Positions 522-19,308 of a stretch of 34,580 nt of DNA are shown one piece after another. Both the position numbers and the translations under genes were made by a program. Positions within the stretch are counted from its first letter, which is position 1; each line of letters begins with the position of its first letter. Origin of the DNA: Candidatus Bruticola sp. (lineage in GTDB: Bacteria > Vulcanimicrobiota > Xenobia > Xenobiales > Xenobiaceae); assembly GCA_051874735.1 (NCBI GenBank), contig JBJEGD010000031.1, forward strand, positions 1 through 34,580. The letters run 5' to 3'. The notes under the pieces were generated by a model. It saw nothing but the letters and a program-made list of their open reading frames with translations, made no database searches and was not told the origin of the DNA.

Positions 522-1352
522 TTGTTCAGCGAATTTCATAAGCCGTCCAGCTTGCAGGAGGCAGCTGCTTTGCGCAGTCGCCTGAGCTCCTCAGCTTATT
601 TAGGCGGCGGCACTATACTTAATACCATAACTTACGCCAAGGAAGTTCCTGAAGAAGAGCAAGCAACTACGCTAATCAGTTTAGCGGGTCTCAATTTAAA
701 GCAGGTTGAGCTAAACCATGGTGAGTTAATTATTGGTTCCGGTCTTACTCATCAGGAGCTGCTAGAAAATGAGATCATTTTTCCCTCCCTCAAAGAGGCT
801 GCTTCATATCTGGTCAACCGCAACATACGCAACATGGCGACTGTCGGCGGCAATATTGCTTTGCGTGGCACTGCTTGCAATCTGTACTCTATGCTGTTGG
901 CCTTGGGAGCTAGGTTGGAGCTCATGAAAGCTGACGGCAATACCTATATAGTCAGCATCGACGACTACAACGAACACGGAGCCCCTGCCGATCTTATTTT
1001 AAACGTGCGCATATCCGAAGAAATGGGCCGTCGCCGTTTTGCCTCCCGCCGCTACGTGCGCACTCAAAATGATATTTCTATTGTATCCGCCTACGCTATT
1101 GCGGATGGCGACGCCGAGCACGTTAAAGATTTGCGCTTAGTTATGGGAGGATTTGCTGCTCATCCAGTTCGTCTAACTGAAATTGAGAGCCTAGTTAAGG
1201 GAGCTGCTTTGCCAGATCGCGATTATTTAGCCGCGCAAATTCGTCCTTTACTCAACCCTATAGCCGATATTCGCGGCGGCGTCGCTTTTAAGCGTGAAGT
1301 GGGCGCTCAGATTGCCGCCTGGTCTATCTATAAAGCTTTTGGTCAACTTTAG
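522..1352 (+). CDS. ygfM: FAD-binding subunit of a xanthine dehydrogenase-family molybdoenzyme (YgfM/CoxM-like)
   Basis: N-terminal 'KPSSLQEA', FAD motifs 'YLGGGT' and 'IRNMATVGGNI', C-terminal 'PIADIRG'; GGAGG RBS before the TTG start; adjacent to the xdhD-like gene. Confidence 0.85.
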   Translation: MFSEFHKPSSLQEAAALRSRLSSSAYLGGGTILNTITYAKEVPEEEQATTLISLAGLNLKQVELNHGELIIGSGLTHQELLENEIIFPSLKEAASYLVNRNIRNMATVGGNIALRGTACNLYSMLLALGARLELMKADGNTYIVSIDDYNEHGAPADLILNVRISEEMGRRRFASRRYVRTQNDISIVSAYAIADGDAEHVKDLRLVMGGFAAHPVRLTEIESLVKGAALPDRDYLAAQIRPLLNPIADIRGGVAFKREVGAQIAAWSIYKAFGQL

Positions 1353-1370
1353 GGAGCTGTGTAAAATAAT

Positions 1371-4247
1371 ATGAAAATAACTTTTCGCTTAAACGGCCGG
1401 GAACAGCAGGCCGAAGTTGAGCCTCGCGAGAGGGCTGACGCTTTTCTGCGCCGTTTAAATGTCACTTCTGTCCGCAACGGCTGCAACGGTGAAGGCACTT
1501 GTGGAGCTTGTGCTATCCGTTTTAACGGGAGGCTGGTTAACTCCTGTATTCTCTTAGCTGCTCAGCTCGACGGCCAAGAGGTCTGTACCGTTGAATATTA
1601 TTCCAAGCACCGCACTTTAAGTGCCATTCAGTCTGCTTTAGTCGATGTCGGCGTGGTCCAGTGTGGCTATTGTACTACTGCTGTAGTCTGTTGTATTGAA
1701 GAACTTTTGGAACGTCATCCTAACCCTACCGATGAAGAAATACGCGACGCCATGTCAGGTATTTTCTGCCGTTGTAACGGATATCAGCAGTTCTACGATG
1801 CTATTCGTTTGGCGGCCAAAAGGAAAAACGATCCTAATTTTACCTGCGTAACGGCTCCTTCTTATGCTGAAGGTAAGCGTGTGGTCGGCAAGCCTGCACG
1901 CAAGATCGACGGTTCAAAGTTAGTGCGCGGTCAAAAAGCTTATGTTGAAGATGTTATCGATCCTCATGCCTGCGTGTTGCGCATGATGCGTTCCCCCTAC
2001 GCTCACGCCTATATTAAGTCGATTGATACTTCCGAAGCGTTGAAAGTACCCGGTGTAGTTTACATTTTAACCCATGAGAATTGCCCCGAAGTACACTACA
2101 ACCAAGCTGGCCAAGGTTTCCCTGAGCCCTCTCCTTACGATCGCAAGTTAATTGGTGACAAAGTTCGTCACGTGGGCGATCGTGTGGCTGCCATTGTCGC
2201 CGAAAACATGGACGCCGCTATCGAAGCTGAAAAGAAAATTAAGGTTGAATATGAAGTCCTGCCTTTTGTTCTTACTGTCGACGAAGCTAAGGCTCCCGGA
2301 GCTCCTATAGTTCATAATGCTAAAGTCTCTTATGTTTGCGGTGCTCCTGACAATTTAGAAGAGTACAACAAGACGGCCGATCCTCGCGATGGCGAAGTTA
2401 TTTATCAATTCCCTATTCACGGTGATCCTCACCGCAATTTGGCTTCTAGTGTTCATGCCGGTATAGGCAACGTTGAAGAGGGCTTTGCTGAAGCCGATGA
2501 AATTGTCGATAATTGGTATGACTGCTGCCAAATCCAGTGTACTCCTGTGGAGCCTCACATAGTTTATACGCGTATGGACGGCGATCGCCTGATTATTCAC
2601 GCTTCCACTCAAGTGCCTTGGCATTTGCGCCGCATTGTGGCCAGCATTATTAAAACGAAGCAGAACAATATTCGCGTTATTAAAGAGCGTGTAGGCGGTG
2701 GCTTTGGAGCTAAGCAAGATATTGTACTGGAAGAGGTCTGCGCTTACCTTACTTGGGTGACTGGCCGCGCGATCTATCAGCGTTTTACCAGAGAAGAAGA
2801 ATTTACCGCTTCCCGCACTCGCCATGTAGCTAAAGTGCGCTGTAAGGTTGGCGCCAAAAAAGACGGTACAATTACCGCTATTTATATGGATGTTCAGGCT
2901 AATACCGGACCTTATGGTTCTCACTGTCTGACGGTGCCTATGAACGCTTGTTCTAAGTCGCTGCCTCTCTTTGATTGTCCCAATATGGCGTTCAATGTTG
3001 ATACCTGGTATTCCAACATCGCTCCTACCGGAGCTTACCAGGGTTACGGCGCTCCTAAAGGCTCTTTCGCTTTGCAGTTGGCCGTAGCTGAAATATCCCG
3101 AAAGCTCGGGTTAGATCACATGGATGTTATTGAAAAGAACCGTGTTCATGTGGGCACCAAATTAGAAATTTTGAAAAGTTTGGGCGAAGGACGCGAAGGA
3201 CAAGCTGAAACTATCCAATCTTGCGGTTTGGGGCCGGCTCTTAAACGCGGGCGTGAGCTGATTGAGTGGGGGAAAAAGGAAGTCAGCAGCGATCCCGATA
3301 TCGCTATAGGTAAGGGCTTCGCTATCGTGCAACAGGGATCCGGATTGCCTGGTCTCGATTCAGCCAATGCTGAGGTGCGTATGCTCAGCGACGGCACTTT
3401 CATTGTCCTTTCTGGAGGCACCGATTTAGGCACAGGCTTAGATACGGTGAGTTGCAAGTTTGTGGCTGAAATTTTGTGCGTTGATATGTCTGATGTGGCT
3501 ATACTCTCCGGCGATACCGATGTTACCCCCTTCGATGTCGGTGCCTATGCTTCTAGCGGCACTTTCTTCAGCGGCGGTGCAGTACGCAATGCGGCTGTCA
3601 ATATGAAAGCTCGTATTTTGGAAGTAGCTTCTCAACTGCTCAGTGAACCAGTAGCTGATTTGCAGATTGTCCATCACGGCACAGTGCAGGGCAAGAAGAA
3701 ATCGATTACTTTTGCTCAAATTGCCCATTATGCCGAGCAAGGAGACGGTTGCGGTCAGTTAATGGCTTACGGACACTTTATTGTCGATAAAGCTTCCTTC
3801 CCTTACGGAGCCCATTTCGCTCAGGTGGCCGTCAATAAGCGCACCGGTGAAGTGAAACTGCAGAAGTACTTCTGTTTGGAAGATTGCGGCACCCCAATCA
3901 ATCCTGAATTGGCTTTAGGTCAAATGTACGGTGGTGTGCTCAAAACTATCGGTCATTCTCTTACGGAAGAGATGATTTACGATAAAGAGACGGGCCGCTG
4001 CCTGACTGCCGATTTTACCGATTATAAAGTGCCCATGATACTCGACCTGCCGGAAGTTTTCGTTTCAGAATTAGTGCCCACTGACGATCCTTTAGGGCCT
4101 TTTGGAGCCAAATCTATTTCAGAAATTACCTGCAATGGTGCTGCTCCTTGTATTGCTGAAGCTATTTACGACGCCGTAGGTGTGTGGGTACGTCAGTGGC
4201 CTTTCACTGCTGAACGTGTTTTACGAGCTATGGGCAAAATAGATTAA
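1371..4247 (+). CDS. xdhD: Fused 2x[2Fe-2S] / molybdopterin-binding subunit, XdhD (YgfN)-like
   Basis: CNGEGTCGAC...C and QCGYC...CRC Fe-S motifs; Moco motifs 'VGGGFGAK', 'AYQGYG', 'YASSG'; catalytic-Glu motif 'GAKSISEI'. Confidence 0.88.
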   Translation: MKITFRLNGREQQAEVEPRERADAFLRRLNVTSVRNGCNGEGTCGACAIRFNGRLVNSCILLAAQLDGQEVCTVEYYSKHRTLSAIQSALVDVGVVQCGYCTTAVVCCIEELLERHPNPTDEEIRDAMSGIFCRCNGYQQFYDAIRLAAKRKNDPNFTCVTAPSYAEGKRVVGKPARKIDGSKLVRGQKAYVEDVIDPHACVLRMMRSPYAHAYIKSIDTSEALKVPGVVYILTHENCPEVHYNQAGQGFPEPSPYDRKLIGDKVRHVGDRVAAIVAENMDAAIEAEKKIKVEYEVLPFVLTVDEAKAPGAPIVHNAKVSYVCGAPDNLEEYNKTADPRDGEVIYQFPIHGDPHRNLASSVHAGIGNVEEGFAEADEIVDNWYDCCQIQCTPVEPHIVYTRMDGDRLIIHASTQVPWHLRRIVASIIKTKQNNIRVIKERVGGGFGAKQDIVLEEVCAYLTWVTGRAIYQRFTREEEFTASRTRHVAKVRCKVGAKKDGTITAIYMDVQANTGPYGSHCLTVPMNACSKSLPLFDCPNMAFNVDTWYSNIAPTGAYQGYGAPKGSFALQLAVAEISRKLGLDHMDVIEKNRVHVGTKLEILKSLGEGREGQAETIQSCGLGPALKRGRELIEWGKKEVSSDPDIAIGKGFAIVQQGSGLPGLDSANAEVRMLSDGTFIVLSGGTDLGTGLDTVSCKFVAEILCVDMSDVAILSGDTDVTPFDVGAYASSGTFFSGGAVRNAAVNMKARILEVASQLLSEPVADLQIVHHGTVQGKKKSITFAQIAHYAEQGDGCGQLMAYGHFIVDKASFPYGAHFAQVAVNKRTGEVKLQKYFCLEDCGTPINPELALGQMYGGVLKTIGHSLTEEMIYDKETGRCLTADFTDYKVPMILDLPEVFVSELVPTDDPLGPFGAKSISEITCNGAAPCIAEAIYDAVGVWVRQWPFTAERVLRAMGKID

Positions 4248-4289: not shown

Positions 4290-4343
4290 TATACGCGCCC
4301 CCTGGTGCTTTTTATAAGTCAGTTAGGGGGCGCGTATATTTTT
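4290..4343 (+). terminator. Intrinsic terminator after xdhD
   Basis: Perfect 14-bp inverted repeat tatacgcgccccct (4290-4303) / agggggcgcgtata (4325-4338) followed by ttttt. Confidence 0.75.
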
Positions 4344-4434: not shown

Positions 4435-4725
4435 GTGGAAGTTGCCGAAGATATGCAGACTCAACCCGATTATGTAAGTTCTATCAATTCCGTTGATGAC
4501 CCAAATTCTCCGTCTCCTTCACTCTGGGAGCGCTGGAAGGCTATGGCAGCCAGAGCCGCTTCTTTTCAAGCCAGAATTTTGCTTATCATATTCTATTGGA
4601 TATGTGTGACACCGTTCGCCATTTTATTAAAGCTTTTTGCCGATCCTCTGGGCCTTAAAGAGCACGGGCGCGGTGGAGCTTGGCAGCCCATACATACTAG
4701 CGATAAGGCGAGGGCTCAATTCTGA
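4435..4725 (+). CDS. Short SxtJ-family membrane protein
   Basis: 'RILLIIFYWICVTPFAILLKLFADPLGLK...W...QF' resembles the C-terminal half of SxtJ-family proteins; the stop overlaps the next start (TGATG at 4723-4727); start codon uncertain. Confidence 0.7.
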   Translation: MEVAEDMQTQPDYVSSINSVDDPNSPSPSLWERWKAMAARAASFQARILLIIFYWICVTPFAILLKLFADPLGLKEHGRGGAWQPIHTSDKARAQF

Positions 4726-7700
4726 TGCGTGTTCTAGGTATTTCTTGTTTTTATCACGATTCGGCCGCTGCTATAATTGTCGACGGTCAAATAGTAGCTG
4801 CCGCTGAAGAGGAGCGCTTTTCCCGCGTTAAGCACGATTTCGCTTTTCCGAAGTTGGCAATTCAGTTTTGCCTTGATTCCGCCTTTTGTAAAGCTGAAGA
4901 TCTCGATTTAGTAGTATTTTTTGAAAAGCCGTTCCAAAAGTTCGATCGTCTGCTGATGTCTTCTATGGCCTCCTGGCCTAAGTCAGCTGTGGCTTTTCGC
5001 GAATCTTCTTTAGTTTGGCTGTTAGACAAGCTTTGGGTTCAGGCCTTTCTGCAGGAACAGCTTGGAGTTGCTAAGGATAAAATAGTTTTTTGCTCTCACC
5101 ATTTATCCCATGCGGCTAGCGCTTATTACTGTTCTGGATTTACTAGCGCTGCTCTTTTAACTGTTGACGGAGTTGGCGAATGGGCTACTGGTACTCGCGG
5201 CTCCGCTTGGGGCAACCAAATTCATCTAGATGACGAAATGCGTTTTCCGCACTCTTTAGGGTTGCTTTACAGCGCTTTTACCGCTTTTTTGGGGTTCCAA
5301 GTCAACGAAGGTGAATATAAAGTAATGGGTATGGCTCCTTACGGCAAGCCTACCTTCTTTGATACTATATTCAAAAATTTAGTGCGTCTAGATAGCGATG
5401 GATCCTTCACTTTAAATATGGATTACTTCGCTTTTCACCGTTCCGCCTACCATTCTTTTAGCGACAAATTCTGCGATCTTTTTGGACGCCCGCGCACTCC
5501 TGAAGAGTCGAACCTGCTCGATCCCCATTATGCCAATATCGCTGCCTCTATTCAGGCTGCAGCTGAAGAAATTCTGGTGCGCCAAGCTCAGGCGCTGCAT
5601 CGCAAGTACGGCCACGAAAATTTGTGCTTAGCTGGTGGAGTTGCTCTGAATTCTGTAGCTAATGCGCGCATTTATCGTGAATCTGGTTTTTCCAACCTCT
5701 ATATTCATCCAGCTGCTGGCGATAATGGCGGAGCTTTAGGAGCCGCCTTATGGGGCTATTACAACGTTTTGGGAGGCACGCAGCGCTACCGTTTGCTTAC
5801 TCCTTACTTAGGCCAAGAACACGACGACTACGCTGTTGCTGATTATTTGCGCTCTCAGAACTGCAAGTTCCGTGAATTGCCCGATATGAATTCTGTATAT
5901 CAGGAAATATCGGCTCGTTTAGAAAGTGGCCAAGTAGTGGGATGGATGAAAGGACGTTTTGAGTGGGGCCCGCGCGCTTTAGGAGCCCGCTCCATTTTGG
6001 CCGATCCGCGTTCCGCCTACATGAAAGACTTAGTTAATGCGCGCATTAAGTTCCGTGAGCCTTTCCGTCCATTTGCCCCTTCAGTTTTAGCTGAAGGCGT
6101 TGAAAGTTATTTCGATATCTCAAATTCTCATTTGCTCGATCCTTTGCGTTTTATGCTCATGGTCGTGCCTGTACGTCCGGAAATGCGTGAAGTAATTCCT
6201 GCCGTAACTCATGTAGACGGAACTTCCCGTATTCAGGCTGTTTACCAGCAGGAGAGCCCTTATTACTACGAGTTAATCAAGGCTTTTTATCAGCGCACCG
6301 GTGTACCTTTAGTGCTGAATACCTCTTTTAATTTAAGGGGTGAGCCTATCGTTAATACTCCGGCTGAGGCCTTGTCTACTTTTACCCGTTCCGATATGGA
6401 TGCTCTGATTATGGGGCGCATGCTAGTCAGCCGCAGGGCTATTTCTGATAAGAGGGTTATTCCTGGGGCCGAGTTAGAAAAATGGTCGCATACTCCATCG
6501 TTGGCGGAAAATCAGAATGCGCAGGGGCGTGCTGCTGCTTCACGCAAGATAGTTTATAAGAGTGACAACGACAGCTCTTCCGGATTTACTCGGATTATAA
6601 GCACCGCCTTCAAATATGTGGCCATCATTTTCTTGCTTTTAGTTGGAGCGGAAATTTTAGTTCGGCTAGGCATAGACAACACTAATATGCAGATGCGTGG
6701 CCTTTATATAAGTACTAAAGACGGTCTGCGTATGCAGCCGGGTTGGACTAGGCGCATACATGGACCTGAGTTCAGCGCTGAAGTCCATATCAACGATGAG
6801 GGCTGGCGGGCTATGCCTGCCTTGCGTCCTGTAGACCAGTTCGGTGGCGATCAGGTCAAACAGCTGGCTGATGGCGCCGATGATAAAGCCGTTTCTGAAG
6901 CCGTTGCTTCGCGTCGTCCTGGTGTAGGACAGACTATTTTAGCTCTGGGCGATTCTTTTACTTTTGGCTGCTGGTCCGATGCTGAGGACACTTGGTTAAA
7001 TCAAATTCAATGTATTACCGGTGCCAAAGTGCTTAATTACGGCATTCCCAACGCTGGTACCGATGCAGAAGCTGAGCTTTATGCTAAGTTGAAGCCTAGC
7101 GAGCGCAAAGCCGATGTAGTCATGCTGGGTTTCTACACCGGCAATGATTTTTACGACAACATGGTCGGCAGTCAGAGTTTTACAGTTTCTGATAAAGCTC
7201 TGGTGCTGACCCCCAAGGCTGAAGCTCTATGGAGTAATTATGACTGTTTTAAGAAGCAGCAAGATTCCGTAGATTTGCCCAAAGATAACAATATCTCTTT
7301 ATATAAAAATTTGCTGCGTCGCAGCCATCTTTACCAGTTCCTGTGCGCCATTGCCTACAGTTTCGGAGGTTCTGCTAAGCTTAGGCCCAATACTGCCCAG
7401 GCTTGGTGTCTCAACAGCTACACTAAGGAAATGCGCGAAGGAGCAGCTAAAACTGCCGAATCTTTAGAAAAAATCCGCACTCTCTGTTCTGAGCGGGGGA
7501 GCGTCTTTGTTATAGTACTCATTCCTTCTTCCATTGAGGTTTACGATCAAGATTGGCAGAACTGGATTGAGCGTTCCAAGTTAGAAGACAGCTTATTTGA
7601 TAGGGGTAAGCCCAGGCAGATAGTGCTTGACTGGGCGGCCGATCAAGGTGTTTACGTGCTCGATTTATGGCCTTACTTAGTGAACAGACCCCGCATGTAC

Positions 7701-7904
7701 TACAGTAAGGATATGCATTTCAATAAGTTAGGTCATTTCCAAACGGGTGAGGTTGTAAGCCAGTTCTTAGATCGCGCAGGCATTTTCGATATTAACATGT
7801 ACGATTCGTCTGTGGTTGATTCCAACATTTTACCCGACAGCATGCCTGCTGAAGAATCAGATAGTGCTGCCAATATAAATGGTGATAATGGTGAGGAGAT
7901 GTAA
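4725..7904 (+). CDS. NodU/CmcH/SxtI-family O-carbamoyltransferase fused via one TM helix to an SGNH/GDSL (AlgX/AlgJ/DltD-like) domain
   Basis: Carbamoyltransferase motifs YHDSAAA, EEERFSRVKH, HHLSHAASA, DGVGE, EYKVMGMAPYG, LAGGVALN, PAAGDNG, GPRALG, KFREPFRPFAP, HVDGTSR, LNTSFN; TM 'YVAIIFLLLVGAEILVRL' from ~6615; SGNH blocks GDSF (from 6948), NYG, GND and DMH (from 7710). Confidence 0.9.
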   Translation: MRVLGISCFYHDSAAAIIVDGQIVAAAEEERFSRVKHDFAFPKLAIQFCLDSAFCKAEDLDLVVFFEKPFQKFDRLLMSSMASWPKSAVAFRESSLVWLLDKLWVQAFLQEQLGVAKDKIVFCSHHLSHAASAYYCSGFTSAALLTVDGVGEWATGTRGSAWGNQIHLDDEMRFPHSLGLLYSAFTAFLGFQVNEGEYKVMGMAPYGKPTFFDTIFKNLVRLDSDGSFTLNMDYFAFHRSAYHSFSDKFCDLFGRPRTPEESNLLDPHYANIAASIQAAAEEILVRQAQALHRKYGHENLCLAGGVALNSVANARIYRESGFSNLYIHPAAGDNGGALGAALWGYYNVLGGTQRYRLLTPYLGQEHDDYAVADYLRSQNCKFRELPDMNSVYQEISARLESGQVVGWMKGRFEWGPRALGARSILADPRSAYMKDLVNARIKFREPFRPFAPSVLAEGVESYFDISNSHLLDPLRFMLMVVPVRPEMREVIPAVTHVDGTSRIQAVYQQESPYYYELIKAFYQRTGVPLVLNTSFNLRGEPIVNTPAEALSTFTRSDMDALIMGRMLVSRRAISDKRVIPGAELEKWSHTPSLAENQNAQGRAAASRKIVYKSDNDSSSGFTRIISTAFKYVAIIFLLLVGAEILVRLGIDNTNMQMRGLYISTKDGLRMQPGWTRRIHGPEFSAEVHINDEGWRAMPALRPVDQFGGDQVKQLADGADDKAVSEAVASRRPGVGQTILALGDSFTFGCWSDAEDTWLNQIQCITGAKVLNYGIPNAGTDAEAELYAKLKPSERKADVVMLGFYTGNDFYDNMVGSQSFTVSDKALVLTPKAEALWSNYDCFKKQQDSVDLPKDNNISLYKNLLRRSHLYQFLCAIAYSFGGSAKLRPNTAQAWCLNSYTKEMREGAAKTAESLEKIRTLCSERGSVFVIVLIPSSIEVYDQDWQNWIERSKLEDSLFDRGKPRQIVLDWAADQGVYVLDLWPYLVNRPRMYYSKDMHFNKLGHFQTGEVVSQFLDRAGIFDINMYDSSVVDSNILPDSMPAEESDSAANINGDNGEEM

Positions 7905-7909
7905 CAAAC

Positions 7910-8080
7910 ATGTTCGGTAAATTTACCAGACGGTGTGCCGTAGCTGTCGATTTTATTAAATTTATGGCCGGCCGACGCTTGTGGCTAGTGCCGTTACTGT
8001 TGGGGTTATTGGCTATGACTGTGCTAGTCTCTTTAGCTCAGGCCACTCATATTGCTCCGTTTATATATACACTTTTCTAG
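7910..8080 (+). CDS. 56-aa DUF5989/SxtK-family membrane peptide, not in the ORF track
   Basis: GAGGAG RBS at 7893-7898; hand translation MFGKFTRRCAVAVDFIKFMAGRRLWLVPLLLGLLAMTVLVSLAQATHIAPFIYTLF*; WLxP, a hydrophobic helix and terminal APFIYTLF are the family signature. Confidence 0.88.
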   Translation: MFGKFTRRCAVAVDFIKFMAGRRLWLVPLLLGLLAMTVLVSLAQATHIAPFIYTLF

Positions 8081-8132: not shown

Positions 8133-8169
8133 AAATAAAGCGCTCTCTATTTTGGAGAGCGCTTTATTT
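8133..8169. terminator. Bidirectional intrinsic terminator
   Basis: Perfect 15-bp inverted repeat aaataaagcgctctc / gagagcgctttattt between convergent genes. Confidence 0.8.
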
Positions 8170-8247: not shown

Positions 8248-9717
8248 TTATATTGTAGGATCAGCAATAACGGTATAGCTGTAAGTCTCAGTAGAAGCCA
8301 GATCTTTGCCTCCACTATTTTGCAGCTTGAAGGATATGGAGCCAGTTTCATTTACCGCAGCAGTACCGTAAGAAAGCTGATAGCTTTTAGAAAGTTCATT
8401 AGGGGTAACGAGCGTAGAAGTGTTAGTATTGACAGGTATAATGACGGCCGTATTAGTCTTGTCAAAAATTTGTATATGTTCAGTTTCAGAGCCGTCTACA
8501 ATGTAGTAAGCCATAACTCGGAAATTGAACTTATAATTGTCGCTCTGGGGTAGTTTATGCAGGTTAGTGTAATCTACAGCCCCTATTACTACAGGATCGT
8601 ACTCGTAGCAGATACTGTCTTGAGCATCTTTTATGTTGATGGTAATCTCGTCACCTACTTTTTGATTGTTTTCATCGTAGGTATACACTTTTAAGGGAAC
8701 ATTCTCTGTAGTATTCCTAGCCGTATAAATGACTCTATCTTTACCTAATTGGAAGTTGATATCAACGGTGTTGGGGGTCTCCCAGGTAGCTTCGTGGTCG
8801 CGCAGCTGCACTTGGAAATCGTTGCTCTTAGTTGTGGGAGAAGTATAAACTCCAACAGCCACAATCTCACCTGAGCCTACGTTGTAAGACTGACTATTTA
8901 AGACAACGGGGGTAAGGCCAAGATCTACGTTAGGGTTAAGCATAGTAAGCTCATCGGTATCTCCGTTTACGCTGTCTTTAATGATAACTTTAGTTAACAC
9001 TGCGTCGGAAACGTATACGTAATCGTGATGATCTTCAGTACGAGTAGTCGTAAAGTAAGCTAAATTGCTTGAAGTAATTTCAAACTCTTGCTTGCCGTAA
9101 CTTTTGCCTTGATAGTAATTGTTGAGCAGACTATCTTGAGCCTGCATAACCATGTTGCCTAAGGGCTTGATCTCCGCTAAGGGGGTAAGATCTAAATCAG
9201 CATAAGTTGAGTCGGGAAGTAAATAAGAGGCTGTCAGATTTACGTAAGTAAATTCGCCTTTGTCAATATGAGTGTAGGTAGGATTGAAGCGGTAGTACTC
9301 TAAGTCTGTATCGGCAATAGAAGGATCGGCGGTAACGGTCGTTTTTAGGCTGCCAGTAGTATTCCAATCGATATCGTTTATACTGAAACTCTTGGCAGTA
9401 GTACCTAAGAAGTAGTAGCCGATAACCTTTACGGCTTCTTGAGGAACTTTGTCTACAGCTAAAGATTCTTCTACAGCCAGTTCATCGGTTACCAGAATGG
9501 GAAGGCCGCTCTTATTGAGGAAGGAGTATTTAACGGTGCCGAACCTAGAAGCAGTTTCAGACAAATTGAAGGTGACTGTCCCGTATTTTGCATAATCTAG
9601 AGGTGCGTAAGAGGTATCGCCTCCGTCGCTGCATCCGGCGGCAAAAGCAGAAAAAGCGAAGCATAGACCGGCACAGGCTACTGTGCCTAATTTTTTAGAA
9701 AAGTTACTTGTAACCAT
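8248..9717 (-). CDS. Lipoprotein of unknown function, beta-rich and possibly Ig-like
   Basis: Signal peptide with lipobox 'FAAGC' followed by SDGGD; T/Y/V/D-rich, beta-strand-like sequence; AAGGA RBS. Confidence 0.7.
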   Translation of the reverse strand: MVTSNFSKKLGTVACAGLCFAFSAFAAGCSDGGDTSYAPLDYAKYGTVTFNLSETASRFGTVKYSFLNKSGLPILVTDELAVEESLAVDKVPQEAVKVIGYYFLGTTAKSFSINDIDWNTTGSLKTTVTADPSIADTDLEYYRFNPTYTHIDKGEFTYVNLTASYLLPDSTYADLDLTPLAEIKPLGNMVMQAQDSLLNNYYQGKSYGKQEFEITSSNLAYFTTTRTEDHHDYVYVSDAVLTKVIIKDSVNGDTDELTMLNPNVDLGLTPVVLNSQSYNVGSGEIVAVGVYTSPTTKSNDFQVQLRDHEATWETPNTVDINFQLGKDRVIYTARNTTENVPLKVYTYDENNQKVGDEITINIKDAQDSICYEYDPVVIGAVDYTNLHKLPQSDNYKFNFRVMAYYIVDGSETEHIQIFDKTNTAVIIPVNTNTSTLVTPNELSKSYQLSYGTAAVNETGSISFKLQNSGGKDLASTETYSYTVIADPTI

Positions 9718-9906: not shown

Positions 9907-12435
9907 TTAGACATTTGTATTGTGGGGCTTTGATTGACCTTTTTTGTTAGACACAGTCAAACTTAAAAGTAATAGTAACATTTTTTTGTGTTTGGCCGAC
10001 AATTTCTCCCACGCTTGTCGCAAGTTTAGATGAGGCGTGTAACTCTTATTAACAGTAGACTCTGCTTGTTTGTACATGTTATTTTCGTAATCCTTGGTCA
10101 TAGATTGTAGCAGAGGCTGTAAGCGTTGATTAGTCACAGTTTGCAGGAATTCATGTGGAGTTTGTGATGGGGATTTGCAAAAATGTAGATCTGCTAAAAT
10201 CATCACCATAGCGGAATACATTTGCTCTGTTTCAGATAAATTATCTGTCTGTAGAATTTTAGAGAAATCTTTTCTTAATCTGAACAGTTTAATAATAATA
10301 TAGAAGCGTTTTTTTATGCTCAGCCCCTTGTTTAAGGAGGTGCCTATAATTAAATGCACCAAATCTGCATTTTTAACTAGCCGATAGCCAGCTAGCAGAG
10401 CTAATGAAAGTAAGATGAAAGCTTTCAAGAAATAGACATAATTTTTATATGAACCTTCAGAATAAGATTTCGCTAAAAACTTTAGCAAATTATTTGCGAT
10501 ATTGGAATATCCGAAACTGGCTCCCTGTTGTTTTTGGTTGTTTACTACATAATTGGGTGAAACAGCGTCAATAGGTAGCCATAGAGATTCCTCACTGAAG
10601 AGAAAAACTTCGGTCCAGGCATGAGTATTATTGCTTCGCACTACATAATCTCCTGAAAACAGATCGGAGTCTTCAGTGGCATAGCCTCCTATATAGCGAG
10701 ACATCAGTCCGATACTACGGCACATTACTGCTAAAGCACTGGCAAAGTTGCGGCATGTCCCTTCCTTATTTTCAAAAAGAAAATAATCATTAGGTTCCAT
10801 GTCGTCCGGGCATGGTGTAGGTGAAAGATTGTAAGCGCAATTCGATCGCAAAAAATGGCAAAGAGCCATTACTTTTAAGAAAGGAGTTCGGTACGGAGCG
10901 GTAAGGCGCACAGCTAAAAAGCGAGTACGCTCTGTAATATTGTCAGGTAATTGTAAGTATTTTTTGACCGCTTTTTTATTAAGATTGGGATCGAGCTTGG
11001 TAATTTCTATACCGCTGCGATCTGCCTCTCCGTGGTAATTCTTGGCCATTTCCCAAGACTTTATTTCGTAAGTTGAAGGTTGATCGTTCAAAAACTGTTC
11101 ATATTCTTTAAAACTGTATCCCAGATCTTCAGGAGAGTTGGGGGCAAAAGAGTAAGTTGTGTAAATAGTTCCTTTTTCTTGAATATTGTGTGAGCGCAGG
11201 CCGTTATCAGAGTCTATGTAGATTGTGTTAGTGGGATAATCTATGGTCTGTGTGAAATACGGGGAGAATATTACATTGTCAAAATTGGTTTCTAAGGAAA
11301 AAATATGGGTAACATATTCACTTTGTGGGCGTTTTCTTAAATATGTGGGATTCATACATCTATCTTTGTAGAAGCGGCGGCTGAACATTCGGGGAATAGG
11401 GCGCATATAACTGGTACTTTCTATTTCCGTAGGCAAGACAAAATCATCTGTTTTCCAGCTTGAGCCATCGTACAATGTATAAACTAAACCGCGACAGTAA
11501 ATAACTCCTTGGCTGTTAGTGCGTATATGCATAAGTACTTTGGGATTGTTTGTTTCTTTCAGGTCGTTATCTTCTCTTAAATTATCATAACTTTCAAATG
11601 CAATTAAATCGTTGTTTTTATTATTACCTTGCCGATTTTTGCTTACAGGTCCATCTGCTCCAATAAGTTCCCCGTATTTGCTTTTTATACCAGCAAAATT
11701 TAAACTTGAGCTTAAATCAAAAGTTGTCTGCATTCTAAAATCGGCTAAACCGGGGTATCGCGGCATAAATAAGAATACCAGTAGTACGGTCAAAATAAAG
11801 ATGGAGACAAACGTACACAATTCACTTATATGTAGTCTTCTATGTTTGCTATCGGCTATTAACAAGATATTATCTGCTTGATAAGACAAGTTGTGGAAAT
11901 AGATAGCATTAATAAATAGGGTGAAATACAGTAGCAAATGTAGGGAAAAATTTGTTTTATTAAAAACGGTAGCTGAGAAGCTAATAAGTAAGAGGCTGAC
12001 TATCAGAGAGTAATTTAAGTCTCGGCGTTTGGGCAAATCAAAAGAGTGGCCGACTACCAACCCTGCTAATAGATTCACGAAAATTTGACCGATATTGTAC
12101 GGAGAGGCTATTAAATTTTGGAAGAAAGTTTTTAGCAGCAGCATCATGTATACGCTGACTAAAGCTTTAATTAGGCAAGCGTTTTTATATCTGAAATAGT
12201 ATGAATATATATGTCCGATTACTAAAAACAGAGGATACAAGTACCAATAATCAGGAAATTCCAGAGCGGAGAAAGTGCTGAATAAGGCGACCAGCTCGCA
12301 CATCATTACACTAAATCGGAGTCTCAGTGAACTTTCCGGGTTGACATGGAGACAGGATAAAAATAGAAGTAGTTTGTCTATTCTGCTGAATCGACTCGGT
12401 TGTTCATGCTTGTTGGTTGATTCACCGCTGCTCAT
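9907..12435 (-). CDS. TgpA-like membrane transglutaminase-family protein (DUF3488 + transglutaminase core + DUF4129-like tail)
   Basis: Multi-TM N-terminus; 'YCRGLVYTLYDGSSW'; triad GTCRNFASA / HAWTEV / IDA; late TM helix and 'SQTPHEF'. Confidence 0.85.
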   Translation of the reverse strand: MSSGESTNKHEQPSRFSRIDKLLLFLSCLHVNPESSLRLRFSVMMCELVALFSTFSALEFPDYWYLYPLFLVIGHIYSYYFRYKNACLIKALVSVYMMLLLKTFFQNLIASPYNIGQIFVNLLAGLVVGHSFDLPKRRDLNYSLIVSLLLISFSATVFNKTNFSLHLLLYFTLFINAIYFHNLSYQADNILLIADSKHRRLHISELCTFVSIFILTVLLVFLFMPRYPGLADFRMQTTFDLSSSLNFAGIKSKYGELIGADGPVSKNRQGNNKNNDLIAFESYDNLREDNDLKETNNPKVLMHIRTNSQGVIYCRGLVYTLYDGSSWKTDDFVLPTEIESTSYMRPIPRMFSRRFYKDRCMNPTYLRKRPQSEYVTHIFSLETNFDNVIFSPYFTQTIDYPTNTIYIDSDNGLRSHNIQEKGTIYTTYSFAPNSPEDLGYSFKEYEQFLNDQPSTYEIKSWEMAKNYHGEADRSGIEITKLDPNLNKKAVKKYLQLPDNITERTRFLAVRLTAPYRTPFLKVMALCHFLRSNCAYNLSPTPCPDDMEPNDYFLFENKEGTCRNFASALAVMCRSIGLMSRYIGGYATEDSDLFSGDYVVRSNNTHAWTEVFLFSEESLWLPIDAVSPNYVVNNQKQQGASFGYSNIANNLLKFLAKSYSEGSYKNYVYFLKAFILLSLALLAGYRLVKNADLVHLIIGTSLNKGLSIKKRFYIIIKLFRLRKDFSKILQTDNLSETEQMYSAMVMILADLHFCKSPSQTPHEFLQTVTNQRLQPLLQSMTKDYENNMYKQAESTVNKSYTPHLNLRQAWEKLSAKHKKMLLLLLSLTVSNKKGQSKPHNTNV

Positions 12436-12464
12436 ATCTGCTCCTAAATTTGTATGCTGCAGAT

Positions 12465-13958
12465 TTAATCTGATAAAGATAAAGAGATTTTAACAGTATC
12501 TTCAGAGACATTCAGACAATTTTTGCCTTGTTTATTGGCAGTATCTATGCCTTCTTCAAGTTCTTTGGAATTATTGTTTAATATCTGAACTTCAGCAAAA
12601 AAACGTTCCAAAGCATAGTTTCCATCCTGGCAGCTGAACAATCTGTAAAAAATTTCGTCAGAGTTTTGATAGTTTTTAGAAGATTGGATATCTCTGCATA
12701 TATGTATCAAGCCGTCTTTCCTATGGTGGTATAAATCCAGATTACTTGAAGAGGGAATACCGCGGTAAGAGACTATTAAGGGGCGCTTCTGGCGTCGGCA
12801 TAAATACAGCACAGAAGCGGCAGCTGATAAAATCATTTCAAATTTGGTTTCAATGGGCTGTAGTTGCAGTGGTGTTTTAGGATCTATTAGGCAGTCTATT
12901 TCCAAATAAACTGGGCGTTTATCATAATGCTGCGTTTCCTGAAATTCTTTAATAATTAATTCATCGAAACGAGCACTGGACGCCCAATGTATAAGTCGAA
13001 AATCTTCGCCATCTTGATATATATGTAGGCCACGAAAATTATCAGAGTCGCTTTTTTGGTTACTATACTGCTCGTTAACATTACTTCGAGTAAGCTTATC
13101 CTTTAATAAATTTGTATTAGGATTGACTTCAGGTTTTATATATATTTGGGGAGTGTAGTTGTCGTTTTGTTTGAGTTGTACTGACCAAAAACCTAAGTAG
13201 CTAATTATGCTTAAGGAACAGGGTATTAGGGGTGTATGTCCTCTATGAACAGCTTGAAAATTGTAGGTAATATTAGCTGACTGATGAGCCCCGACAGCTT
13301 TAATTAAACATAATTTATTAACTATTCGCTCACTGTTAATGTTTGCAGCTAGAGCTTTTAGTCCTGAGTTTATCTCACTTATACTTTTTCTTCGTTTGTG
13401 AAATAATCTGACCAAATTTACAGAAGTTGAGGAAGGGATTATCTCTTCCTGAGAGGGCTGAAAGCGACCTAAAATACTGCAGTTAGTTTCATAGTTATCG
13501 AAATCAAATAATACTTGCAAATTTAATATATCTGCGTTGGAATTATTAGTAATTTTAAGATTGACAGTCCCTGCTTTGTTTAATGAAACTATTAAGTTGC
13601 CTTTTTCATCGATAAAAAAATCGCTGTTAATTTTGTAGTTAGGATTCACCTGATTAACTTTGTACGGCACAGCTGTAATAGTAAGGGGAGCTTTATGTCT
13701 TATAAACTTAAATGATGTTACAACGTAGTCAGCCGTCAAAATTGCCAAAATTATTGAAGTTATAATAAAAAGCCAACCGGATTGAGTATTTGTGGCTATA
13801 CCATAAATTATTAAAACCAGAAAAAACAGAGGCAATCCCATACCGTGAAATTGAGGTATAGTTTTTAAGCTCATATTGACAGACAATTTATCGTTAGTTT
13901 GTTTTAACTCATCCATAAGCCATACATTACATAAGTAAAAAAAAGAGCGTACTCCCAA
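12465..13958 (-). CDS. DUF58-family protein; true start may be the ATG at 13916
   Basis: N-terminal TM pair including 'ATNTQSGWLF'; DUF58 core 'NFRGLHIYQDGEDFRLIHWASSARFDELIIKEF' and 'FEMILSAAAS'. Confidence 0.8.
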   Translation of the reverse strand: MGVRSFFYLCNVWLMDELKQTNDKLSVNMSLKTIPQFHGMGLPLFFLVLIIYGIATNTQSGWLFIITSIILAILTADYVVTSFKFIRHKAPLTITAVPYKVNQVNPNYKINSDFFIDEKGNLIVSLNKAGTVNLKITNNSNADILNLQVLFDFDNYETNCSILGRFQPSQEEIIPSSTSVNLVRLFHKRRKSISEINSGLKALAANINSERIVNKLCLIKAVGAHQSANITYNFQAVHRGHTPLIPCSLSIISYLGFWSVQLKQNDNYTPQIYIKPEVNPNTNLLKDKLTRSNVNEQYSNQKSDSDNFRGLHIYQDGEDFRLIHWASSARFDELIIKEFQETQHYDKRPVYLEIDCLIDPKTPLQLQPIETKFEMILSAAASVLYLCRRQKRPLIVSYRGIPSSSNLDLYHHRKDGLIHICRDIQSSKNYQNSDEIFYRLFSCQDGNYALERFFAEVQILNNNSKELEEGIDTANKQGKNCLNVSEDTVKISLSLSD

Positions 13959-17031: not shown

Positions 17032-19308
17032 ATGCAATTCATACGCAAAAAATTGACATGTCTTGGCAATATTAGCGATAGAAAAACTGTATTAGCCAGT
17101 TTGCTCAGTAAAAAATTTAGCCCGGTCATATCCGGAGGCCATGATCGGTTCGTTGAAATTTTAGGTAAGGGCAACTTAGAAGAGGCTTTAGACGGTGACA
17201 TAATTATCACTCCCGCCGGAGAGATGCTCTATTACCACTTTTTACCCCAAGATAATGCTCTGTTCGTTGGCGGAGTTTGGGATGAAAAGAACGGCGAAAA
17301 TGCTTGGAAAGAGTATGCGGCTATTGTAGATGAGGCCATTCCTCAGGCTGAATATGAAGATGTCCCTGTAATTTCCCCTTATTTTGAATTGTTGCGTGAA
17401 GATTCCGAGCCTTTGCCAGTAGGTGAATGGGAGCGGTCCGCTGCTTACTGCCTTCGCAGTCCCGGAGTGCGCCAAATTCTCAAGGTCGTTTCCGAGCGTG
17501 GGGTTGTTTCTCTGCCCGAAGCTGCTCAGGGGCGCTCTATTTTTGAAGTCGGTGAAGACGTCAAAACTATGGCCGATATGGGCATTATTAACTGCGAATT
17601 TGAGGTGTTCTGTAAAGAAACCGGACAGAAGGTCAGTCGTGTCTCTAGCTTAGCCGCTCTCGATGAAGCTGCCAAGCGCGGTTTCCGCTGTTTCCACTGC
17701 GGCAAAGCTATTTCCGATGAGCAAATAGTGCAATCTTTGTCTGTTTGCCCCAAAGGTTCTGTTTTAGCTCGCAGCAACATGTGGTTAGCTTACACTGTAG
17801 GTGCGGCTTTGCTTGATTGCGGTGTTAAGAGTGAACATATACTATTCCGCAGCGAGAACAATTATCATAGTTGTGAAGTATTCGCCGATTATAAAGGGCT
17901 TCTGCTTATGTTCTCCATATCTGAGCAGGGACTCGATGCCAATTCTGTATTCCGTATTCTGACCCGCAGCCGCTTCTTCCATCCCGATTGCACTTTTGCG
18001 GTGACCTCTGGACTCATTAGTGCCGAAGCTTACAAAGTGATTGAAGCTGAAGGGGAGCGCATGCTTATTGTCAGCGATATCGATACTTTGCAAAAATCTA
18101 TAGAGTCTGTTGCCGATCGGGCTTGCCGCTCTGCTATTAGCAGTTTCTTAGCTAATATTGATGAACTTACAAAGGTTAGCGTTGGAAAAATTATAGGTGA
18201 GTACTTCCTAAACACTCCAAGCACCGAGCTGGCTGGGGCAGCTGTCGCTTTAGAACCTCGCACTTCTGCTAGTAAAAAGACCGCTGCAGAATCGGAAGTA
18301 GTTGCGCCTGTTGCTGAAATTGCTGCCGAATCTGAAGTAGCTGCTCCTGTTGTTGAAACTATTGCCGAACCTGAAGTAATTGCTCCTGTTACTGAAACTG
18401 CTGTCGAACCTGAAATAGCTGCTTCTGTTGCCGAAACTGCTGTCGAACCTGAAGTAGCTGCTCCTGTTGCCGAAACTGCTGTCGAACCTGAAGTGGCCGC
18501 TCCGGCTGCCGAAGCTGCTGCCACTGCTTCCGACAACGATGTCAGTCCTGATTTACCCGCGTTCCTGCCCGCTGTCAGTGAATCACTTAATGCTGCGGTC
18601 AGTCAGCTTTTGGAGCACCTTATAGAAGAGAGCGAGGATACCGATAATTTAGAGGTTAGTCTCAACTCTATCTCTGATCTTGGTATTTCATCGGCTATGA
18701 TTGTGGCTGATGACGGTATGCCTTTCTTAGGCGCCATGGAAACTTTCTCCGATGCCGAATCTGCTGCCGCTTTCTTGCCCGAATTTATCGGCAACATTAA
18801 GACTATCGCTAGTGAGGTATCGTTAGGCGAAGTACAGCGCACTTTCATTGCAGCTGGTAAGGCAGGATGCTTCGATCTTTATCCTACTGCAGATGGATTG
18901 ACTCTGTCAGTTCATAATATAGAAACTGGTTCTCTTTGCTATGGAGGCCGCTTAGCTAAAGATGATACTTTGAAAAAGAGCTTGATGGGGCTGACAGTAA
19001 TCGATAGCTTCTTCGATGCTGTTATTGTCACCGACGACGTAGTTGTCGATTCCACCACTCAGGACTGCGACGACATAGCTATGGCTATGTCCAAAATGTA
19101 CGATGCGGCTCTTCTTTACCTTGATGAGCTCGGTCTTGACAAGTGCTTGGCTCTGGTAGTTGATACTGACAGTCAGATGCTGGCTGTTTATCCTCTCAAG
19201 GAGGATTATAGGATTATTTGTATCCTTGATAAGGGAGCTAATGAATCTGTCTGGCGTAAGAGTATTCCTGCTAAATTGGCGCGTGTTATAGGAGCTCTAG
19301 ATCTGTAA
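17032..19308 (+). CDS. Multidomain hypothetical protein: winged-helix/Cys-knuckle region, 13-aa repeat linker, two C-terminal Roadblock/LC7-like domains
   Basis: 'FCKETG...CFHCG'; 'GISSAMIVADDGMPF...AAAF...EVSLGEV' resembles Roadblock/MglB, and a second copy reads 'DAVIVTDD...IAMAMSKMY...ELGLD'; GAGGAG RBS. Confidence 0.6.
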   Translation: MQFIRKKLTCLGNISDRKTVLASLLSKKFSPVISGGHDRFVEILGKGNLEEALDGDIIITPAGEMLYYHFLPQDNALFVGGVWDEKNGENAWKEYAAIVDEAIPQAEYEDVPVISPYFELLREDSEPLPVGEWERSAAYCLRSPGVRQILKVVSERGVVSLPEAAQGRSIFEVGEDVKTMADMGIINCEFEVFCKETGQKVSRVSSLAALDEAAKRGFRCFHCGKAISDEQIVQSLSVCPKGSVLARSNMWLAYTVGAALLDCGVKSEHILFRSENNYHSCEVFADYKGLLLMFSISEQGLDANSVFRILTRSRFFHPDCTFAVTSGLISAEAYKVIEAEGERMLIVSDIDTLQKSIESVADRACRSAISSFLANIDELTKVSVGKIIGEYFLNTPSTELAGAAVALEPRTSASKKTAAESEVVAPVAEIAAESEVAAPVVETIAEPEVIAPVTETAVEPEIAASVAETAVEPEVAAPVAETAVEPEVAAPAAEAAATASDNDVSPDLPAFLPAVSESLNAAVSQLLEHLIEESEDTDNLEVSLNSISDLGISSAMIVADDGMPFLGAMETFSDAESAAAFLPEFIGNIKTIASEVSLGEVQRTFIAAGKAGCFDLYPTADGLTLSVHNIETGSLCYGGRLAKDDTLKKSLMGLTVIDSFFDAVIVTDDVVVDSTTQDCDDIAMAMSKMYDAALLYLDELGLDKCLALVVDTDSQMLAVYPLKEDYRIICILDKGANESVWRKSIPAKLARVIGALDL
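18289..18522 (+). repeat. Six 39-bp coding tandem repeats, consensus EPEVAAPVAETAV
   Basis: gaacctgaagtagctgctcctgttgccgaaactgctgtc-like units read directly from the sequence. Confidence 0.9.

Follow-up and report, generated by a model that had tools for sequence, protein, structure and literature searches.

A three-gene operon of Candidatus Bruticola encoding a carbamoyltransferase-SGNH fusion and a tyrosine-tailed DUF5989 microprotein: a possible carbamoyl counterpart of the acyl-tyrosine shuttle

In PMC12148441, a short FXYXXF peptide is described as an "acyl shuttle", the Tyr of which becomes acylated in DltX and PatA (the PatA peptide being FIYANF) and then donates its group to the Ser of an SGNH enzyme. 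A peptide of this type terminates the last product of a tight operon of three co-directional open reading frames (ORFs), situated at 4453-8080 on the forward strand of a 34,580-nucleotide (nt) stretch of Candidatus Bruticola sp. DNA (contig JBJEGD010000031.1 of assembly GCA_051874735.1, phylum Vulcanimicrobiota; this whole stretch is referred to as the window hereafter), which encodes a shortened SxtJ homologue (o1), a carbamoyltransferase fused via a transmembrane (TM) helix to an SGNH domain (o2), and a 56-amino-acid (aa) DUF5989 microprotein (o3; Table 1). Comparative analysis of these proteins suggests that the operon might represent a Tyr-shuttle/SGNH-type system with a new donor chemistry, operating without either of the large membrane enzymes (MBOAT or AT3) otherwise found in such systems, an assignment that is tentative and, in our estimate, falls slightly short of an even chance of being correct.

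Carbamoyltransferases of the NodU/CmcH/TobZ type are cytoplasmic enzymes that use carbamoyl phosphate and ATP to form carbamoyl-adenylate, and then transfer the carbamoyl group to a hydroxyl. Both Pfam domains of these enzymes are found in o2 at full length and with high scores, together with the metal and GPRALG motifs, whereas the known members are soluble and act on small molecules or oligosaccharides, and neither a TM-SGNH fusion nor a Tyr-tailed partner is described for any of them in the literature found. A literature search combining carbamoyltransferase, SGNH, membrane and polysaccharide yielded only unrelated work, one on DltX and carbamoyl yielded nothing on the subject as judged by the titles or abstracts of the papers listed, and no link between DUF5989 or SxtK and the shuttle motif was found either, a search for DUF5989 itself having returned nothing.

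The same four gene types are, however, adjacent in the saxitoxin clusters, for which PMC2679770 and PMC2885083 give sxtI (carbamoyltransferase), sxtJ (405 bp), sxtK (165 bp, i.e., a 54-aa product) and sxtL as neighbors, SxtL being of the GDSL type and a proposed decarbamoylase (PMC2885083), while a June 2026 preprint calls SxtJ and SxtK uncharacterized and sxtI/J/K "hypothesised to work in conjunction". The likeness extends to the o1 family reaching the Pfam SxtJ model, although in the operon described here SxtJ is reduced to its C-terminal half and the SGNH domain is fused to the enzyme. SxtK is presumably a DUF5989 member, to judge by its size and its position.

The preliminary description of this DNA had listed three ORFs, a TGATG overlap, a 5-nt gap and a FIYTLF end, all of which are indeed present, with the overlap of o1 and o2 at 4722-4727 and the gap between o2 and o3 at 7905-7909 being readable directly in the sequence. 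The o3 product matches DUF5989 (PF19451) at 49.6 bits versus a cut-off of 27 over profile positions 5-49 of 49, the match thus reaching the C-terminus, and it is this terminus that shows the most telling pattern of conservation. The last 14 residues are invariant in 14 close relatives, an alignment of 21 diverse DUF5989 sequences (down to 15% identity) retains Y53 and F56 as its only invariant columns, and one of 67 sequences has P28, Y53 and F56 as its invariant set. A Y-x-x-F end is seen in 47/47 DUF5989-like ORFs from the phylum and close-relative loci, with tails as varied as PFIYTLF, PFLYTLF, PFVYSLF, PLIYTLF, PFTYNLF, PALYFIF, TFVYAGF and SLIYAGF, while a profile search returned 4081 clusters at 90% identity, among the best 120 of which all 120 end in Y-x-x-F and 112 in PFIYTLF. 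The Tyr, whose conservation had been named as something on which the relay idea would stand or fall, is therefore conserved in all of the sequences compared.

Resemblance to the DltX-DltB-DltD system, as described in PMC12148441, comprises a single-pass microprotein with its N-terminus in and C-terminus out, the C-terminal FXYXXF and a TM-anchored extracytoplasmic SGNH protein; unlike in that system, the operon has neither an MBOAT (DltB) nor a carrier protein, the donor would be the carbamoyl-adenylate of a NodU/CmcH enzyme, and no homology of o3 to DltX was detected. Searching the sequences of the PDB with the DUF5989 profile gave chance-level matches only (signal peptides, an aquaporin), and the o3 profile did not match the last helices of MBOAT proteins. 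As neither DltX homology nor a match in the MBOAT helices was found, the resemblance is one of motif and architecture and not of demonstrated common descent; the tail shared by DUF5989 and the MBOATs may be convergent, or it may be too short for scoring.

In 18 of the 20 MBOAT loci inspected from the same phylum (L158-L177), the MBOAT itself ends in (P)F[ILV]Y-x-x-F (e.g., PFIYFQF, PFLYFQF or FVYADF), which illustrates the generality of the shuttle tail and parallels the PFIYTLF of o3, this being the likeness to the PatA/PatB and AlgI/AlgJ type. SGNH genes beside the MBOATs in two of these loci (L161 and L165) match the SGNH profile of the window (E 4e-7 and 3e-8, respectively) and share its layout of a TM anchor, an acidic residue, N..G.R and GDS. 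Unlike in the PatA/PatB and AlgI/AlgJ type, the tail is here carried by a free 56-aa protein, and the genome lacks the multi-helix protein that forms the acyl-CoA tunnel.

As for sidedness, the N-terminal flank of DUF5989 averages 3.24 Lys+Arg versus 0.00 in the 13-residue tail and is the more basic of the two in 133/133 sequences, a charge bias from which the N-terminus is predicted to be in and the tail out. Nearly all of the stand-alone SGNH partners encoded at related loci have one N-terminal hydrophobic anchor preceded by basic residues, so that the predicted location of both the Tyr tail and the SGNH domain is, as had been supposed, on the outer side of the membrane.

The enzyme half of o2 is a carbamoyltransferase by both of its domain matches (Carbam_trans_N, PF02543, residues 2-342, 265.2 bits versus a cut-off of 24; Carbam_trans_C, PF16861, residues 398-570, 227.6 bits versus 27), even though the NCBIfam NodU equivalog threshold is not reached (137.7 bits versus 1000). 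The motif HHLSHAAS is found at residue 125, its HHLSH being the metal-binding motif, and GPRALGARS at residue 415. The related GPRALGRS is named as a putative catalytic site in the June 2026 preprint.

The SGNH half matches Lipase_GDSL_2 over residues 740-1004 (34.8 bits versus a cut-off of 32.9) and shows block I as G742-D743-S744, block II as N776-A-G778, block III as G806-N807-D808 and block V as D996-x-H998, i.e., D-x-H versus the usual D-x-x-H. Alignment of 39 SGNH partners leaves G742 and S744 invariant and E643, G693, R695, D743, G748 and H998 conserved in at least 90% of the sequences, and this invariance of G742/S744 and conservation of H998 make the domain look active. The SGNH anchors mostly end in E-[ILV]-x-[LV]-R, the version in the window being AEILVRLG, and the Glu643/Arg647 pairing (o2 residues 641-649, window 6645-6671) recurs in most of the anchors listed. 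Glu643 and Arg647 are located where the microprotein tail would be.

AlphaFold2 (AF2) modeling of full-length o2 (47-row alignment; mean predicted local distance difference test score (pLDDT) 85.4, predicted template modeling score (pTM) 0.58) lays out two confident domains, with a disordered linker at 590-620, the helix at 620-649, the beta subdomain, the SGNH domain up to 1017 and an acidic disordered tail, while the TM-SGNH part alone was modeled at a pLDDT of 85.2 and a pTM of 0.82. A Foldseek search of the PDB with the SGNH domain gave 128 matches at E<=0.001, the best 50 of which are almost all GDSL/SGNH-type esterases and the top one of which is the crocagin leader peptidase CgnD (8a2n, E 5.4e-8, template modeling score 0.58 on the target); searching PDB sequences with the SGNH region gave weak GDSL matches (best E 0.053). 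A modeled complex of o2 residues 600-1020 with o1 and o3 scored 0.06 versus a mark of 0.32, a value that, coming from a run without controls, speaks neither for nor against binding.

The CgnD match brings in a quite different explanation, namely that the Tyr tail is itself a substrate, which would be modified (by carbamoylation or otherwise) and cut by an SGNH peptidase, so that a small extracellular product or cofactor is released. According to PMC10070186, CgnD is an SGNH-fold leader peptidase of the crocagin pathway, other members of which are the carbamoyltransferase CgnI and the precursor CgnA, with Tyr and Trp in its C-terminal core, so an SGNH-fold enzyme, a carbamoyltransferase and a Tyr-containing peptide are common to both systems. 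The crocagin proteins are, however, soluble and their peptide is a leader-core precursor, whereas the peptide here is embedded in the membrane and has its tail on the outer side, opposite the enzyme; that tail is near-identical in thousands of clusters spanning many phyla (PFIYTLF in 112 of the best 120 clusters), unlike typical natural-product cores; and the CgnD match is just slightly better than those of generic esterases. CgnB, CgnC and CgnE have no counterpart in the operon, and the genes flanking it encode molybdopterin dehydrogenase subunits, a 489-aa protein and a TgpA-like protein, with neither a CgnB/E-type binding protein nor a CgnC-type dioxygenase among them. A crocagin-like role is therefore considered improbable.

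Fusion of a donor-side module and an extracytoplasmic SGNH domain in one polypeptide is also the layout of OatA, for which PMC12148441 likewise gives a Tyr as an intermediate carrier. The donor module of o2 is, unlike the 10-helix AT3 channel of OatA, a soluble cytoplasmic ATP-dependent enzyme followed by a single helix, and no AT3 was found in this genome.

For the gene neighborhoods, ORFs were called in 40 loci from the phylum and 80 loci from metagenomes and scored with profiles made from the window's own proteins, of which the SGNH profile picks up distant members less readily than Pfam does, and the counts include related genomes, which are non-independent samples; the phylum tallies for genomes with DUF5989 and for control genomes lacking it include ten genomes flagged as unpublished, on which nothing else reported here depends. 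DUF5989 is present in 36 of the 401 phylum genomes searched, and the genome carrying the window (2.47 Mb, 92% complete) has one DUF5989 gene and one carbamoyltransferase, its nearest public relatives being gut or rumen metagenome-assembled genomes labeled Candidatus Bruticola, Riflebacteria or just "bacterium".

Of the 39 phylum loci with a DUF5989 anchor, 31 have a carbamoyltransferase no more than 600 bp away, as do 58 of the 79 metagenome loci with such an anchor, although many of the latter span only 1-3 kb. These counts, together with the DUF5989 score and the 4081 homologous clusters already mentioned, also dispose of the most skeptical reading, i.e., that the 56-aa frame is spurious or its adjacency to the enzyme fortuitous and functionless: the terminator and promoter scans alone do not rise above chance, no other support for that reading was found, and it is rejected as having practically no chance of being right, the small gene being conserved. 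That all three genes of the operon are real is clear from their homologues, which are conserved and identically arranged in many genomes.

Among the 31 phylum loci pairing a carbamoyltransferase with DUF5989, an SxtJ-like gene is found within 4 kb in 26 and an SGNH protein within 2.5 kb also in 26 (12 fused, 14 as separate neighbors). Twenty control carbamoyltransferase loci from phylum genomes without DUF5989, in contrast, have an SxtJ-like gene in four cases (weak matches) and an SGNH protein in one, this sole SGNH-positive locus carrying an SxtJ-like gene too, and the SGNH association is thus specific to DUF5989-carrying carbamoyltransferases as far as these loci go (26/31 versus 1/20). The wider picture is less uniform, since the 25 longer metagenome loci contain, within 4 kb, a carbamoyltransferase in 22, an SxtJ-like gene in 19 and an SGNH protein in 10 cases, so the co-occurrence of SGNH with DUF5989 that had been anticipated is clear within the phylum and extends to a minority of the broad sample, a result that counts against the relay by one of the refuting conditions named in the preliminary description. 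A Pfam scan of the neighbors in these 25 loci (122 of 136 candidates, 14 having been dropped by size, with carbamoyltransferase, o1 and o3 matches excluded) nevertheless ranked Lipase_GDSL_2 first (11 proteins) and Lipase_GDSL second (6), followed by glycosyltransferases, ABC/Wzt exporters, sugar-nucleotide enzymes and Bac_transf, and neither MBOAT nor AT3 is among the 25 families listed.

The absence of an MBOAT gene from the window was already part of the preliminary description, and the independence from MBOATs proposed there seems to extend well beyond the window: neither MBOAT (PF03062) nor AT3 has a match in this 92%-complete genome, and 19 of 33 DUF5989 genomes yielded no MBOAT, among them 8/8 of the genus to which the window belongs.

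Three variations on the arrangement were noticed among the loci. DUF5989 paralogues ending in PALYFIF (L064-L067 and L069; e.g., L065:9007-9167 and L067:9015-9175) have no adjoining carbamoyltransferase, and, in the three loci scanned (L064, L065, L067), their neighbors include a DUF7411/QueC-like PP-loop ATPase, FGE-sulfatase-like proteins, GT2 glycosyltransferases, a radical SAM/SPASM enzyme, an asparagine synthase and an SGNH protein, from which it follows that the Tyr-tailed microprotein may also pair with other ATP-dependent enzymes. In a second subtype (L071-L074; e.g., L071:8936-12069), a DUF5989-like protein ending in [FI]VYAGF or LIYAGF adjoins the carbamoyltransferase, with a TM-anchored SGNH protein nearby (directly after the enzyme in L071 and L073), and the lack of an SxtJ-like gene in these loci implies that SxtJ is not obligatory. 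The third, L181:1448-4845, from a genome without a DUF5989 match, has an SxtJ-like gene, a carbamoyltransferase, an 80-aa ORF ending in YPLW and an SGNH gene in a row, and the 80-aa product may be a divergent, non-TM Tyr-tail partner.

The first gene of the operon is the least straightforward of the three to assign. Its start is probably the ATG at 4453, because relatives begin with MQTQPDYV too, and its product has no Pfam or NCBIfam match even at E<=10, the cut-off of Pfam SxtJ (PF19588) thus remaining out of reach. Alignment with 14 longer SxtJ-type proteins (hhalign) is nonetheless highly significant (99.3% probability, E 3.9e-20) and covers their C-terminal half only. Searching 1.84 billion proteins with a profile built from o1 and near relatives gave 1108 representatives (50% identity) at E<=0.001, and among the best 150 of these the lengths are mostly either about 75 aa or about 172 aa; 25 of 61 sampled sequences of the family (o1 plus 60 matches) reach Pfam SxtJ at E<0.01 via the second half of the model, and three o1 homologues from the phylum (L038, L040 and L046) pass its cut-off outright (43.3, 39 and 48 bits, respectively, versus 24.4). 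By sequence homology, o1 is thus an SxtJ homologue lacking the N-terminal TM helices of full-length SxtJ, so that its earlier labeling as "SxtJ-like" holds. SxtJ-type proteins, o1 included, end in R-x-Q-F-COOH after a conserved Trp (window 4705-4722), so that the operon encodes, besides the tail of o3, another conserved aromatic C-terminus.

The only hydrophobic stretch of o1 (about 21-24 aa) has an invariant central Pro, and both flanks of the 24-residue hydrophobic stretch of the SxtJ core are basic (4.12 and 3.96 Lys+Arg per 20 aa). Basic residues on either side and an invariant Pro fit a re-entrant hairpin better than a membrane-spanning helix, and the SxtJ core is therefore probably such a hairpin at the cytoplasmic face and not a channel. 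The idea that the SxtJ-like protein takes over from an MBOAT in bringing the tail or the group across the membrane is not supported by these features, and the gene is, moreover, missing at 5 of the 31 phylum loci; a trans-membrane channel formed by SxtJ was rejected on the charge bias and these absences.

Put together, these observations are consistent with a relay in which the NodU/CmcH-type domain would carbamoylate Tyr53 of o3, the tail would present the carbamoyl-Tyr to Ser744 on the outer face (as DltX does to DltD and the PatA tail to PatB) and the SGNH domain would hand the group on to an acceptor outside the cytoplasm, for which a surface glycan is the likeliest choice, with the SxtJ-like protein acting as a monotopic adaptor that would keep the enzyme at the membrane rather than as a channel. 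A glycan is the probable acceptor because relatives of the operon sit among polysaccharide genes, even though no glycan genes are found near the operon within the window itself. Such a relay of carbamoyl-Tyr to an extracytoplasmic SGNH transferase is put forward tentatively, its chances of being right being, in our view, nearly but not quite as good as those of being wrong. The topology is consistent for its second half, in which both Tyr and Ser are outside, and for its first half two speculative routes of loading can be envisaged: either the uncharged 13-residue tail would re-enter the bilayer towards the inner face, near the SxtJ hairpin and the enzyme, or o3 would be loaded before its post-translational insertion, in which case the microprotein would be a single-use carrier. 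Of the relay as originally sketched, the motif, the SGNH specificity, the dispensability of an MBOAT and the sidedness have stood, whereas the membrane crossing by SxtJ and the presence of SGNH in the broad sample have not.

A number of points weigh against this relay. The enzyme is cytoplasmic while the Tyr is predicted to be outside, and no conduit for the carbamoyl group between them was identified, the sole hydrophobic stretch of SxtJ, with its basic flanks, probably not spanning the membrane. SGNH proteins are lacking at 5 of the 31 phylum loci (2 of which end at a contig edge) and were found within 4 kb at only 10 of the 25 broad-sample metagenome loci. Neither o3 nor DUF5989 has a sequence match to DltX (Pfam at E<=0.1; PDB sequences at E<=10), and the structures closest to the SGNH model are CgnD and then generic GDSL esterases, with no DltD, PatB, AlgX or OatA among the best 50 Foldseek matches. 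Carbamoyl-serine enzymes, moreover, tend towards slow turnover, and the saxitoxin case suggests by analogy that the module can serve a small molecule and not an envelope polymer. The evidence is, finally, all comparative, and related genomes are not independent of each other.

Several of the same facts would sit comfortably with a simpler arrangement, in which the role of DUF5989 and SxtJ is confined to anchoring or activating the enzyme at the inner face, where it would act on a lipid-linked or membrane substrate, and the SGNH domain is a separate esterase (e.g., a de-O-acylating or decarbamoylating one). The SxtJ core looks monotopic and cytoplasmic, 15 of the 25 broad-sample loci have no SGNH protein within 4 kb, the structures closest to the SGNH domain are hydrolases, the neighbors include glycosyltransferases, Bac_transf and Wzt/ABC-2 exporter genes, and PMC2885083 proposes a decarbamoylase function for SxtL. 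Such tethering would, however, leave unexplained why invariance is confined to two residues of a shuttle-type hexapeptide, its Tyr and its terminal Phe, why the tail is on the side opposite the enzyme, and why SGNH domains are fused to, or specific for, the carbamoyltransferases that carry DUF5989, and it is regarded as unlikely, although likelier than either the crocagin-like role or chance adjacency.

The features of the operon and of its immediate surroundings are collected in Table 1. The hairpin downstream of the preceding gene likely marks the end of the preceding transcription unit, and the one downstream of o3 is a probable bidirectional terminator, although the terminator scan as a whole was not above chance (8 found versus 6.4 +/- 2.4 in shuffles).

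Table 1. Operon features and flanking signals, given in window positions.
Feature	Position	Strand	Remarks
GC hairpin followed by T run	4295..4308	+	5-bp stem with 4 GC pairs; 3' of the upstream molybdopterin-dehydrogenase gene
Candidate sigma-70-like promoter match	4311..4340	+	Weak, 9/12 positions; scan not above shuffle expectation
o1 frame	4435..4725	+	96 aa from the alternative GTG start; the likely ATG start at 4453 gives 90 aa
o1	4453..4725	+	90-aa shortened SxtJ homologue; basic amphipathic segment, hydrophobic stretch, DPL, C-terminal R-x-Q-F
o2	4725..7904	+	1059 aa; carbamoyltransferase, disordered linker, TM helix, beta subdomain, SGNH, acidic disordered tail
Carbamoyltransferase domain, NodU/CmcH-type, cytoplasmic	4728..6434	+	Pfam; AF2 pLDDT mostly >85
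TM helix, o2 residues 620-649	6582..6671	+	Glu643 and Arg647 near the outer end; AF2, conservation
Beta subdomain and SGNH, extracytoplasmic, o2 residues 661-1017	6705..7775	+	Pfam, motif blocks, AF2
Ser744 codon, predicted SGNH nucleophile	6954..6956	+	Invariant in 39/39 aligned partners
o3	7910..8080	+	56-aa DUF5989 microprotein; N-terminus basic, single TM helix, tail of 13 uncharged residues up to PFIYTLF-COOH
C-terminal hexapeptide F51-I-Y53-T-L-F56	8060..8077	+	Fits FXYXXF; Tyr53 codon 8066-8068
Palindromic hairpin	8133..8169	.	Perfect 15-bp stem; between the operon and the convergent gene 8248-9717 (-)

Elsewhere in the window, a molybdopterin dehydrogenase set of the xanthine/aldehyde oxidoreductase type, which is apparently unrelated to the operon, precedes it at 522-4247 (+) and consists of an FAD-binding subunit followed by a fused 2Fe-2S and molybdenum-cofactor-binding subunit. 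The product of the convergent gene at 8248-9717 (-) is 489 aa long, begins like a lipoprotein and has no Pfam match; beyond this gene, at 9907-13958 (-), come a TgpA-like transglutaminase membrane protein and then a DUF58 protein, a common pair, and a 758-aa protein, also without a Pfam match, is encoded at 17032-19308 (+).

In more general terms, the operon could exemplify a third route, beside those of MBOAT and AT3, by which bacteria bring an activated group through the cytoplasmic membrane, and in which a tyrosyl carbamate on a DUF5989 protein of about 55 residues (probably SxtK as well) is handed to an outward-facing SGNH O-carbamoyltransferase, a generalization that we find possible while leaning towards doubt. 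The pairing of a cytoplasmic loader with an outward-facing Tyr makes for a sharp topological puzzle, which is approachable experimentally. If the relay is true, the acyl-tyrosine shuttle would be extended from acetyl and D-alanyl to carbamoyl groups and could dispense with MBOAT and AT3 proteins, the large membrane enzymes, while the GDSL-type partner in such clusters would be the final transferase and not a decarbamoylase. It would also address a question standing since the saxitoxin clusters, namely why carbamoyltransferase genes often travel with two tiny membrane-protein genes, and would provide DUF5989 and SxtJ, both of them widespread families, with a function open to testing, and predict that surface molecules in many phyla undergo a hitherto unrecognized O-carbamoylation outside the cytoplasm.

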